A stretch of DNA of 43,596 nt, from sequence record SRR16203515_1469; one strand, written 5' to 3'. The notes below the pieces were generated by a model. It was not told the DNA's origin. It saw nothing but the letters and a program-made list of their open reading frames with translations, and searched no databases. Every line of letters starts with the position of its first letter. The first letter of the stretch is position 1. Shown here piece by piece: positions 31,446-33,321 of the stretch. A program made the position numbers and the translations under genes.

Positions 31446-31605
31446 TCACTGGCTGCTGTTAACAGAGCCAAGGCAGCAGCACTCAGAGGTGCTTGCTGCC
31501 TGATGTCGTGCTTTTTGTTCGTCGATACGTTAACGTAGTGGAATGTCACTTGCTCGTAACTGCAGTGGCATTTCAACGTTAACCTAATGAACGGATGTGG
31601 CGGCA

Positions 31606-32094
31606 ATGCAAAACCTTCAAGTGATCGATCATGCGAAACTAACTCAACTAAAGCATGATGCTCAGTGTAGCCCTCGTCAACGTGCTAATTTAAACCTCCA
31701 CACGTCCTACAGCGACCTTGTTCAGCGGCTATTTATCGCCATGCTACCCGATTCTTACGTGCGCCCTCATAGACACGTACAAGCCCATAAGTGGGAGTTT
31801 TTCATGGTAGTGGAGGGCAGTATAGAACTATTGTTTTTTGACGACTATGCCACGCTTACACAGCGGATCACCTTGCAAGCCGGTGGCGAGTGTACGGCAA
31901 TAGAGATACCCCCTAACACATGGCACGCCACCGTATGCCATGCGCCTGTTGTGTTTATGGAAGTGAAACAGGGGCCTTACGAGGTAACGGGGGATAAAGG
32001 TTTCGCACCGTGGGCACCGGCAGAGGGCGAAGCCGAGGTGGCAAACTTTTTAGCCCAGCTTAAAAACGCCAAGGTTGGCACCTGCTTTGAGTGA
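31606..32094 (+). CDS. WbuC-family cupin-fold metalloprotein
   Basis: SPRQRANLNLH, YVRPHRH...WE, EIPPNTWH, EVKQGPY, FAPWAPAEG. Confidence 0.85.
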   Translation: MQNLQVIDHAKLTQLKHDAQCSPRQRANLNLHTSYSDLVQRLFIAMLPDSYVRPHRHVQAHKWEFFMVVEGSIELLFFDDYATLTQRITLQAGGECTAIEIPPNTWHATVCHAPVVFMEVKQGPYEVTGDKGFAPWAPAEGEAEVANFLAQLKNAKVGTCFE

Positions 32095-32095
32095 A

Positions 32096-32557
32096 CTAGG
32101 GATTAGGAAAGTCGAGGCGATCTAACTCGTTCGCAGCATCTTTGCATTCACCTAATAGGTGCACACGTCCTTCGGCTTGGTGGGTGTCTATTTCAATATA
32201 GCCTTCTCTACAATAATGGTTTTCTGCCAAAGTCTCATCAAGGGCGGCATACAGCTTTGACTGTTGTTTAGCCCGCCTGTCTTCATTATCTGCCCCGCTT
32301 TGGGCGTTGCCCTGTCCCCGAGAACCCCGTTGTCCGCGCCCTCTGTCGCCTCTTCCTTTCCTTTCTTTATTGCCTCCATCAGCATCGGGTCTGCCCATAT
32401 CCATACTAAATGCAAAAAGTTTAGTACCGTCTGCATTTATTTTGGTTTCAAAAAAGGTTTCGCCCATTTCAGGCATTGACGGATTAGTAGCACAACCGGC
32501 TAATAACGCACTGGTTGCAAGGGCGGGAAAGAGGACATGGAAAAAAGCAGGTTTCAT
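32096..32557 (-). CDS. Uncharacterised lipoprotein with a Gly/Arg-rich insert
   Basis: Lipobox LAGC; GTKLFAFS; YCREGY...GEC cysteine pair. Confidence 0.78.
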   Translation of the reverse strand: MKPAFFHVLFPALATSALLAGCATNPSMPEMGETFFETKINADGTKLFAFSMDMGRPDADGGNKERKGRGDRGRGQRGSRGQGNAQSGADNEDRRAKQQSKLYAALDETLAENHYCREGYIEIDTHQAEGRVHLLGECKDAANELDRLDFPNP

Positions 32558-32771
32558 AAATAATACTAAGGTAATTAATAATGCAGATAAGAACTACTAT
32601 TACCGATAAAGTTGCTTTGATAAGTGTAAGTATTGCGTAAAGTGAGTGTCTAATCTAAATACCCCACTCGGCGTAACTAGGTGGATAGCATCGCCTGTGG
32701 CTAAATACAGGTGCTGTTTACCAAACAAGGCGCAGTCAGTGGGTTATGCAAGATTCCTTTTTGGAAAGCTA

Positions 32772-32799
32772 TTGTTATTGCCACCGATAGTGGTATGGT
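32772..32799 (+). promoter_or_regulatory. Possible promoter of the leader-HTH transcript
   Basis: TTGTTA-N16-TATGGT with an extended -10 (TGgTATGGT). Confidence 0.35.
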
Positions 32800-32880
32800 T
32801 AACGATAAGACGTGAGCGCGCCTCGCGAATTTTATTTATCAGCGACGTTTAACCACGCAGCACAGCACAGAGAATTCGAC

Positions 32881-32928
32881 ATGCAAAACGTAGTCTTTAA
32901 TTACTTTTATAATTATACCCACGCATAG
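32881..32928 (+). CDS. Attenuator leader peptide MQNVVFNYFYNYTHA (Tyr/Phe-rich)
   Basis: ATG CAA AAC GTA GTC TTT AAT TAC TTT TAT AAT TAT ACC CAC GCA TAG. Five of seven consecutive codons are Phe or Tyr; AGAGA lies upstream; attenuator helices follow. Confidence 0.8.
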   Translation: MQNVVFNYFYNYTHA

Positions 32929-33030
32929 CACCTGACGCTAAGTGTTCAGGGGCTGTTAATCGCTTCTGGGCATAGTAGGTAAGAACGTTTTGCAAAAGCC
33001 CAGAAGTTTACAAACATCTGGGCTTTTTTT
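32901..33030 (+). promoter_or_regulatory. Ribosome-mediated transcription attenuator (1:2 / 2:3 / 3:4)
   Basis: 1:2 is TTACTT...ATTATACCCA (32901-32921) with TGGGCATAGTAGGTAA (32967-32982). 2:3 is GCTTCTGGGC (32962-32971) with GCCCAGAAGT (32998-33007). 3:4 is the terminator. Confidence 0.8.
32994..33030 (+). terminator. Intrinsic terminator (attenuator helix 3:4)
   Basis: AAAAGCCCAGA...TCTGGGCTTTT with a T7 run at 33024-33030, 24 nt before the HTH start. Confidence 0.88.
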
Positions 33031-33054
33031 ATGCCCATAATTGGGAAGACAACA

Positions 33055-33291
33055 ATGAGAGAATTAACCTTAGGCGAAATTAGAAAGCAACACAGAGTGA
33101 AACAAGAGGTTGTGGCTATGGCGCTGTGTGTCACCGCGTCTGGTGTCAGTAAGCTTGAGTCTAAACGTATTCAAGATGTTTCGCTGCAGCGGGCGGCGGC
33201 TTATTTAGCCGCGGTTGGGGGAAGCTTAAAAATTGAAGTTACCTTACCCGATGGTGGAACAGTGAGCGTGGGAGAAAATATCTCAGCCTAG
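33055..33291 (+). CDS. Small XRE/Cro-C1-type HTH protein (78 aa)
   Basis: [33 protein letters not shown], followed by [18 protein letters not shown] (typical of HigA-like XRE proteins). The ATG at 33055 has a GGGAAG RBS. Confidence 0.85.
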
Positions 33292-33293
33292 TT

Positions 33294-33321
33294 TTGCCAT
33301 TAGGGTGGTTAGGGGTAGAAT
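33294..33321 (+). promoter_or_regulatory. Putative sigma70 promoter of upp
   Basis: TTGCCA-N16-TAGAAT directly after the HTH stop. Confidence 0.55.

Follow-up and report, generated by a model that had tools for sequence, protein, structure and literature searches.

The window analyzed here is a DNA stretch of 43,596 nucleotides (nt) from sequence record SRR16203515_1469, and the subject of this study is the 500-nt intergenic gap between a minus-strand lipoprotein gene (32096-32557) and a plus-strand gene for a helix-turn-helix (HTH) protein of the XRE type. An earlier note on the window had read this gap as holding a Tyr/Phe-sensing transcription attenuator of the leader-peptide type that controls a lone XRE-type HTH regulator. 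Our comparative evidence supports the attenuator: a leader open reading frame (ORF) is found in 34 loci, its insertions and deletions (indels) are in frame, and its stop codon abuts the following hairpin (hairpin A) in every lineage. The features of the window are listed in order.

32752-32768, no strand assigned: dyad GATTCC-TTTTT-GGAAAG (consensus CTTTCC-N5-GGAAAG), candidate operator of the HTH protein, ending 3 nt 5' of the -35 hexamer.
32772-32799, plus strand: probable promoter, putative in function, with -35 TTGTTA (32772-32777), a 16-nt spacer and the extended -10 TGGTATGGT (32791-32799; TGG + TATGGT).
32811-32827, plus strand: small GC hairpin followed by a T-rich tract, AATTTTATTT, terminator-like according to the scan, in the 5' untranslated region (UTR) between the predicted promoter and the leader ORF.
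32869-32873, plus strand: Shine-Dalgarno (SD)-like AGAGA, 7 nt 5' of the leader ATG; AAGAGA or AAGGA stands at the same spot in aligned loci.
32881-32928, plus strand: leader ORF of 15 codons, MQNVVFNYFYNYTHA, with ATG at 32881, TAG at 32926-32928 and the core Y-[FINV]-[YF]-N-[FYI].
32883-32891, plus strand: 5' strand of the long-range helix P1, GCAAAACGT, in leader codons 1-4, pairing with 32985-32993.
32928-32936, plus strand: segment 1, GCACCTGAC, the 5' arm of hairpin A, sharing one base, the last, with the stop codon; invariant, with 99.6% pairing to segment 2.
32942-32953, plus strand: segment 2, GTGTTCAGGGGC, partner of segment 1 (hairpin A) or segment 3 (hairpin B).
32962-32973, plus strand: segment 3, GCTTCTGGGCAT, partner of segment 2 (hairpin B, 98.5% paired) or segment 4 (antiterminator, 97.0% paired).
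32985-32993, plus strand: 3' strand of P1, ACGTTTTGC, 4 nt 5' of the terminator stem.
32994-33030, plus strand: intrinsic terminator, consisting of an A-tract, GCCCAGA(AG) (segment 4), a loop, TCTGGGC (segment 5) and a run of seven T (T7).
33031-33036, plus strand: (A/G)TGCCC box, ATGCCC in the window, directly 3' of the T-run.
33055-33291, plus strand: the regulated gene, encoding an XRE/HigA-like HTH protein of 78 amino acids (aa); Pfam HTH_3, E 2.3e-5, also HTH_31/HTH_37.

The 15-codon ORF lies at 32881-32928 as the earlier note had drawn it. When the regions upstream of the HTH gene were aligned and inspected for a conserved Tyr/Phe micro-ORF, the leader ORF was found in the window and in 34/34 Alteromonas loci, as 26 distinct nucleotide versions (numbers such as L024 are our handles for loci). 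Its indels measure 3 nt (L024; the window, L028 and L040) or 6 nt (L029 and L034), both TAT and TAC are used for Tyr8 and Tyr10, and codons 5-7 are hypervariable across the Alteromonas loci. The core of the peptide reads Y/N - F/I/N/V - Y/F - N - F/Y/I, with AAT as the Asn codon in every Alteromonas locus. An SD-like AAGAGA or AAGGA is positioned 7-8 nt 5' of the leader start, and the conserved reading frame that marks leader-peptide attenuators is found; this conservation suggests that the leader ORF is translated. At its other end, the stop codon sits 2 or 5 nt 5' of the CCTGA core of the next hairpin in Alteromonas.

We aligned 33 distinct Alteromonas leaders, two duplicates having been dropped, and derived a consensus structure with RNAalifold, which gave three helices: P1, hairpin B and the terminator. 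In P1, leader codons 1-4 (GCAAAACGTT) pair with AACGTTTTGC, which immediately precedes the terminator (alignment columns 27-36:136-145, 96.4% paired), and L029 and L034 show a compensatory switch in it from AAACGTT:AACGTTT to AAACATG:CATGTTT. In hairpin B, GTGTTCAGGGGC pairs with GCTTCTGGGCAY. The terminator stem, GCCCAGA (32998-33004) with TCTGGGC (33017-33023), followed by T7 at 33024-33030, is 97.4% paired and contains 4 compensatory pairs. This terminated state of P1, hairpin B and terminator is 97.5% paired and has 7 pairs with compensatory change; 0/500 shuffles equal its pairing, and slid controls reach 33-58%. The alternative state combines hairpin A (GCACCTGAC:GTGTTCAGGGGC, from the stop codon) with the antiterminator (CTTCTGGGC:GCCCAGAAG) and is 98.2% paired. 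It is invariant across the 33 leaders and therefore has no covariation support of its own, a frozen sequence being expected because the bases serve two helices. The helix alternatives are exclusive, in that segment 3 takes segment 2 or 4 and segment 4 takes segment 3 or 5, with 97-98.5% of positions paired across the 33 sequences. P1 and the antiterminator cross, only some 4 nt separating segment 4 from the 3' strand of P1, and what is generally known of pseudoknot geometry suggests that these two would be mutually exclusive as well. The 181-nt leader of the window folds more stably than 200/200 shuffles (z-score -4.67).

These helices coincide with those of the earlier note in part. The terminator with T7 and the GCTTCTGGGC:GCCCAGAAG antiterminator lie where it had placed them, the window's antiterminator pairing GCTTCTGGGC at 32962-32971 with GCCCAGAAGT at 32998-33007. 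Covariation, for which the note had proposed to look, speaks for the terminator (its 3:4 stem) through the 4 compensatory pairs, whereas the antiterminator (its 2:3 stem) is paired but invariant. The 1:2 helix that it drew between the control codons (32901-32921) and 32967-32982 is not conserved: 55.2% of its cells in the alignment are paired, equal to the 55.2% of shuffled alignments, and slid controls give 36-52%. That helix does appear in the window's own minimum-free-energy fold. Its layout of three helices has to be replaced by a conserved design of five segments plus the long-range P1, which it had missed, as it had the candidate operator dyad.

No Rfam family reaches its threshold in the leader. 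The best match, His_leader (RF00514), scores 32.3 bits (E 0.008) against a gathering threshold of 49 bits; this weak match reflects an attenuator-like architecture and not membership, and the leader is without a run of His codons. Directly after the T-run, the (A/G)TGCCC box is present in 33/33 aligned Alteromonas leaders and in 6/6 divergent cassettes (see below). A weak hairpin of 3-5 base pairs (bp) is possible between the ATGCCC box and a G-rich stretch 5' of the HTH start (mean z -0.9), and the box may provide an extra layer of translational control. It is also able to pair weakly with CUGGGC strands. A conserved upstream ORF (uORF) beginning in the box was considered and rejected, as frame and stop positions vary.

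All close relatives of the HTH protein with a named source organism (27 proteins) come from Alteromonas, and the 34 loci, obtained by a scan of species-representative genomes, all belong to Alteromonas or to metagenome-assembled genomes of Alteromonadaceae. An RNA model built from 22 Alteromonas leaders detects exactly one copy in 45/79 genomes of the genus; a stringent sequence pattern matches once per genome in 5 complete genomes and occurs in 5/401 genomes sampled from the order. Searches with an HTH profile gave matches in 13 of the 151 genomes of a family sample and in 9 of the 401 of the order sample.

Six divergent HTH loci from other Alteromonadaceae (L049, L050, L051, L052, L060 and L082) carry the same cassette in largely different sequence, and the four of their HTH proteins that BLAST could align with that of the window, out of five tried, share 35-52% identity with it. 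The order of parts is a dyad, an ORF of 14-20 codons, a hairpin 0-3 nt after the stop, an antiterminator, a terminator, the (A/G)TGCCC box and the HTH gene, with a [CT][CT]GGGC strand complementary to the terminator arm GCCC[AG]G. The dyad is TTTCC-N5-GGAAA in 5/6 and TGTCC-N5-GGACA in L050. Equivalents of P1, 9-12 bp long and unrelated in sequence to that of Alteromonas, occur in 5/6 divergent lineages (CGAATAGTT:AACTATTCG in L082). Among the divergent leaders tested, 4/5 form a P1-like helix of 10-12 bp, which 16-113 of 2000 shuffles do as well, and that of L049 has 6 bp only. When the Alteromonas RNA model was run over 49 kilobases (kb) of other loci, its top five matches were the five divergent cassettes searched (E 0.0024-0.073, by a rough calibration). 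The flanks of five divergent loci gave no match to the cupin, lipoprotein, upp and tdk genes of the window, apart from one weak partial LacI-type match in L049; because the flanking genes are unrelated in these five checked loci, the cassette travels as a unit. The six leaders, with their residues at codons n-7 to n-4 (that is, 4-7 codons before the stop), are as follows.

L049: MMNCFRFTHFFSGS, with T-H-F-F.
L050: MFNFVSLLSLAPTPSFSLPT, with P-S-F-S.
L051: MNFSRIYFWYHILT, with F-W-Y-H.
L052: MNFSRIYSWHNFST, with S-W-H-N.
L060: MKTFRITHYWYLHLN, with Y-W-Y-L.
L082: MTLIRIVNWQYIRY, with N-W-Q-Y.

In all seven lineages, hairpin A begins 0-3 nt 3' of the stop codon, an arrangement that couples the position of the ribosome to the choice of helix. 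We modelled this coupling by block folding, in which 8 leaders were cut 2 nt after segment 4, the moment of decision, and folded with a 30-nt ribosome block; the method assumes the size of the footprint and approximates the switch by thermodynamics. When the A site was placed on the stop codon, 7/8 leaders lacked the antiterminator, the exception being L060. When it was moved to n-4 to n-7, the antiterminator formed at all four positions in 6/8 leaders and at one or more positions in 8/8. With no ribosome, it was absent in 6/8, which took up P1 and hairpin B and left segment 4 free. Codons n-7 to n-4 read Y-F-Y-N in most Alteromonas leaders, and block folding appears to fit this conserved codon block, whose end coincides with the predicted loss of the stalling effect.

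Based on these findings, we propose that a monocistronic HigA-like XRE regulator is gated here by a transcription attenuator of the ribosome-mediated, leader-peptide type, which is probably tuned to Tyr/Phe(/Trp) codons, a reading to which we give a probability of about 0.62. A conserved cis-regulatory element with these parts and this pairing potential is present at the locus; the translation of the leader, the stalling signal, the autoregulation and any output regulon are what we infer. Transcription would start at the promoter beside the TTTCC-N5-GGAAA dyad, probably the regulator's own operator. A ribosome that reaches the stop codon would cover segment 1, so that segments 2 and 3 could form hairpin B, segments 4 and 5 the terminator, and the transcript would end at 33030. 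If the ribosome stalled 4-7 codons before the stop, within Y-F-Y-N-F, segments 1 and 2 could instead form hairpin A, segments 3 and 4 the antiterminator, and the HTH gene would be read through. In a leader that is not translated, P1, formed by the first leader codons and the stretch 5' of the terminator, would exclude the antiterminator and favour termination.

The signal for stalling would be a scarcity of charged aromatic tRNAs: those for Tyr and Phe in Alteromonas, and for Trp, Tyr, Phe and His in its relatives. Charging of aromatic tRNAs is the most likely signal, short of an established one. The critical codons n-7 to n-4 specify F/Y/W/H/N at 3-4 of the 4 positions in Alteromonas and in 5/6 divergent lineages, with L050 as the exception, and F/Y/W account for 4-5 of 13-14 residues in 6/7 lineages. 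Of the Tyr/Phe sensing claimed in the earlier note, the aromatic residues at the critical codons stand up to comparison, whereas their enrichment over composition is modest (P 0.02-0.19 against nucleotide shuffles), with no excess in L050. Sensing of Tyr/Phe is plausible.

Several points weigh against our proposal. In block folding, two leaders, those of the window and of L060, adopt the antiterminator in the ribosome-free state as well, and two others do so over a narrower range than n-4 to n-7: L012 at n-6 and n-7 alone, L049 at n-5 alone. Equilibrium folds of the full-length leader always keep the terminator, with ribosome blocks too, and cannot discriminate between the states. The aromatic enrichment just given is weak for leaders of AT-rich composition, a composition that could be either the cause or the consequence of the aromatic codons. 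There is no run of a single codon, unlike in the genus's own pheA leader (...FFFGF...), and the invariant Asn codon is left without explanation by aromatic sensing. The regulated gene encodes a DNA-binding protein and does not belong to an amino-acid pathway, as it does in classical attenuators; with a TyrR-box-like site at aroF-tyrA and a leader of its own at pheA, no aromatic-pathway target is evident. Finally, an operator search of complete genomes found no regulon, and the relaxed dyad is not enriched, with 4-8 copies per genome versus 7-10 for a reversed control.

The aromatic genes of Alteromonas have controls of their own. In genome G002, the region 5' of pheA (L085, 1042-1150) holds a classical Phe leader, MKQNIKHLALFFFGFTSLY and a stop codon, then a CCTCCC...GGGAGG-T9 terminator; by this leader, Alteromonas also uses canonical pheL-type attenuation. 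In the same genome, 5' of aroF-tyrA (L087, about 2611-2594, minus strand), TGTACAATAAAGTTTACA includes TGTACA-N6-TTTACA, which we take to resemble a TyrR box; the two genes encode 3-deoxy-D-arabino-heptulosonate 7-phosphate synthase and prephenate dehydrogenase. In the rplT-pheS spacer of G001 (L078, 1180-1215), rplT is followed at once by a strong terminator, and pheS is not preceded by a Phe-rich leader, in contrast to the pheM arrangement of Escherichia coli. Descent of the element from a pheST leader was rejected for that absence of a Phe-rich leader in G001.

The architecture described above would equally serve a general sensor of translation stress, in which any slowing of the ribosome on the leader antiterminates and the aromatic, AU-rich codons are merely slow ones. 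The mycobacterial whiB7 uORF and the Bacillus bmrB leader behave as general sensors of this kind, and a sensor of stress would account for the mixed codons in place of a single-residue run and for L050 without its aromatic enrichment. According to PMC10274678, stalling and a wide range of starvation signals all act on the whiB7 uORF. We nevertheless consider a general sensor unlikely here, since aromatic, His and Asn codons recur at the critical positions in Alteromonas and in 5/6 divergent lineages despite near-total turnover of the sequence, which argues for selection on codon identity.

A stall could also come from the nascent peptide, as with TnaC and SpeFL. The C-terminal Y-x-[YF]-N-[FYI] would then arrest the ribosome from the exit tunnel, possibly with a small-molecule cofactor, and the motif, which lies 2-3 residues from the stop, is indeed conserved as a peptide, in that its Asn never changes and its Tyr codons vary synonymously. 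However, the motif is not conserved outside Alteromonas, where MNFSRIYFWYHILT, MTLIRIVNWQYIRY and MMNCFRFTHFFSGS are alike in composition and not in sequence, and folding predicts antitermination over a window of 4 codons and not at one arrest site. Such an arrest therefore seems very improbable to us.

Still more doubtful is a sensor of tRNA modification, either queuosine-34, which the tRNAs for Tyr, Asn, His and Asp carry and which concerns NAY codons, or an i6A37-type modification of UNN-reading tRNAs. In Alteromonas leaders, NAY codons take up 4-7 of the 14-16 positions; Tyr or Asn is encoded at position 8, and most leaders end in a codon for Tyr, Asp, His or Asn. Yet Phe and Trp, whose tRNAs lack queuosine, stand out just as much, above all in the divergent lineages (four have W at n-6), the conserved codons as a set are not accounted for by any one modification, and a full-text literature search returned nothing that links leader peptides, transcription attenuation and queuosine. 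We give just as little credence to an independent small or dual-function RNA gene that ends at 33030, its micro-ORF or RNA acting in trans and the HTH gene being reached by incidental readthrough: the terminated transcript (P1, hairpin B and terminator) would be stable and highly structured, and trans-acting attenuator RNAs exist, such as that of Sinorhizobium trpL (PMC7968998), but the element always lies directly 5' of an HTH homologue (in the window, the 34 loci and the six divergent cassettes, five of which were examined for their flanks and have unrelated ones), its alternative antiterminator is conserved, and this reading would not exclude control in cis.

The HTH gene lies directly 3' of the terminator at 33055-33291, as had been noted before, and its start is about 24 nt 3' of the T-run. 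Because this gap contains no promoter-like site, transcripts of the HTH gene must pass the terminator; a simple promoter scan listed no plus-strand promoter-like site between 32582 and 33294. The predicted leader promoter, which that scan did not list either, agrees with the consensus at 8/12 positions only. Its TGGTA[TAG]GGT box is kept in 28/35 Alteromonas loci at a fixed spacing from the dyad, which starts 37 nt 5' of the TGGTATGGT box wherever both are present. The dyad itself (at most 1 mismatch in TTCC-N5-GGAA) is found in 33/35 Alteromonas loci, the exceptions being L026 and L030, and it is a reasonable inference that it is the HTH protein's own operator and serves autoregulation. The predicted 5' UTR from this promoter to the HTH gene is about 250 nt. 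In PMC5864184, the primary transcriptome of Alteromonas Te101 is described as having 34 5' UTRs longer than 200 nt, a set that may bear on our promoter call.

As an alternative start, a -10 box (TATAAT) hidden in the YFYNF codons was rejected: L033 and L024 have no usable hexamer, the divergent leaders have none there, and the covarying P1 would fall outside such a transcript. The strict 17-mer dyad has no other copy in two complete genomes and one extra copy in a third, and the recurrent extra copies of the dyad fall inside coding DNA, for example in uvrA. A regulon by operator search was accordingly rejected, the strict dyad being unique or nearly so and the relaxed one not above its control.

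Downstream, the earlier note had read upp as apparently having a promoter of its own, and this is supported: a promoter-like TTGCCA-16-TAGAAT at 33294-33321 precedes upp, and in 13/34 loci upp is separated from the HTH gene by a gap of 1.5-2.7 kb. In both loci examined, this gap holds a convergent gene for a secreted protein of 428-429 aa (L015, 3360-4646, minus strand; L031, 3328-4617, minus strand), and where such a gene follows, the HTH gene is monocistronic. The convergent protein of L015 matches the pectinacetylesterase family PF03283 (E 4e-17), and the other 11/13 loci were likened to these two by gap size. A pyrBI-like coupling to upp, sensitive to uridine triphosphate, was rejected: the leader ORF ends about 65 nt before the terminator, upp has the promoter-like site and the distant position just described, and the 5 checked divergent cassettes do not lie beside upp.

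The HTH protein offers a hint of where the cassette came from. Compared with solved structures, its profile matches Mycobacterium tuberculosis HigA3 (6lty, E 2.6e-7) and HigA2 (7ewc, E 8.3e-5), which makes it a sequence relative of the antitoxins of HigB/HigA (Gp49-HTH) pairs. More distant HTH relatives (L053-L059 and L061) have no leader and lie directly behind an ORF of the Gp49/HigB family (in L056, Gp49 E 9.4e-22, with an HTH protein of 100 aa). Where those have a toxin gene, the leader and attenuator take the position upstream of the HTH gene here; the stretch from the promoter to the HTH gene contains no ORF large enough for a toxin, and the window has no adjacent toxin. Autoregulating antitoxins usually have a palindrome at their own promoter, as does the window cassette. 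Since the Gp49 family is present in 1/5 complete Alteromonas genomes, the leader-linked HTH protein does not form part of a conserved toxin-antitoxin pair. An orphan antitoxin against a toxin encoded elsewhere was rejected on the same count, Gp49 being the only toxin family searched.

We would tentatively suggest, while holding it to be doubtful, that the whole cassette family (dyad operator, promoter, leader attenuator and HigA-like repressor) derives from higBA modules in which a stalling leader replaced the toxin gene, so that the supply of particular charged tRNAs would directly determine how much of an antitoxin-type regulator without a ligand is present. Genome G443 holds two paralogous cassettes, L050 on contig 1 and L060 on contig 25, with the leaders MFNFVSLLSLAPTPSFSLPT and MKTFRITHYWYLHLN. 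In these paralogues, the TGTCC...GGACA dyad goes with VGK and the TTTCC...GGAAA dyad with VSK in the predicted recognition helix, a single case of co-change that is suggestive. If the derivation were true, higBA-derived cassettes that differ in leader codons, operator and recognition helix, like these two, would represent a modular route to new amino-acid-responsive regulators, and antitoxin-type repressors could be seen to be recruited to new roles.

The mechanism that we propose belongs to the textbook class of leader-peptide attenuators. In common with trpL, pheL, pheM and hisL, the element has a short ORF with a codon cluster, terminator and antiterminator helices that exclude each other, and an intrinsic terminator immediately before the gene, and its multi-hairpin cascade is most like that of hisL, in keeping with the weak Rfam match. 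It differs from the classical cases in its mix of Tyr/Phe/Asn codons (with Trp/His in relatives) where they have a codon run, in its five segments and a long-range helix that reaches the leader start, and in a gene product that binds DNA in place of a biosynthetic enzyme or aminoacyl-tRNA synthetase. In Bacillus subtilis, the leader peptide of rtpLP-rtpA (anti-TRAP), to which the earlier note had compared the element and which contains codons for an aromatic amino acid, likewise controls a regulatory protein and not an enzyme; that system uses a T-box and translational coupling, and its product is an anti-regulator and not a DNA-binding protein. Stalling in a short leader ORF also leads to antitermination in B. 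subtilis bmrB-bmrCD, which differs in its signal, translation inhibitors, and in its target, an ATP-binding cassette exporter.

The closest parallel in design is the mycobacterial whiB7, for which PMC10274678 describes a transcription-factor gene behind a terminator, freed by uORF stalling, with the uORF codons setting the starvation that is sensed. Both systems place a transcription-factor gene behind a uORF-dependent terminator, and we see this as analogy and not homology: whiB7 encodes a WhiB-like Fe-S factor of actinobacteria and has an alanine-rich uORF, versus an XRE/HigA-like protein in Alteromonas here, and the two leader RNAs are not known to have sequence or structure in common. The novelty that the earlier note saw was thus somewhat overstated, as whiB7 is a precedent for relaying tRNA charging to a transcription factor; its point about the target stands, in that our full-text literature search returned no description of a Tyr or aromatic leader before an XRE/HigA gene, nor of an Alteromonas attenuator. 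While the gating of a transcription factor by uORF stalling is already known from whiB7, what is new here is the HigA-type HTH target without a toxin, the mixed aromatic codon set and the long-range helix that ties the leader start to the terminator.

Few attenuators turn ribosome stalling into the synthesis of a transcription factor, whiB7 being the best studied of them, and the element described here would be a gamma-proteobacterial case in an abundant marine genus. It could reveal a response of the cell beyond the TyrR and pheL controls when the charging of aromatic tRNAs drops, and its helix P1 would hold a leader that is not translated in the conformation that terminates. Since Alteromonas macleodii can be cultured and manipulated genetically, the system is compact and testable.

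Around the element, two variable regions and one further gene were observed. The 5' UTR stretch around the small hairpin at 32811-32827 varies among loci in length (about 50-150 nt) and in sequence. The upstream lipoprotein gene, which is present in only some loci, encodes a protein of 153 aa that matches no family and whose middle is of low complexity and rich in Gly and Arg. On the opposite strand to it, further upstream at 31597-32094, lies a gene for a WbuC-family cupin (TIGR04366, E 4e-47).

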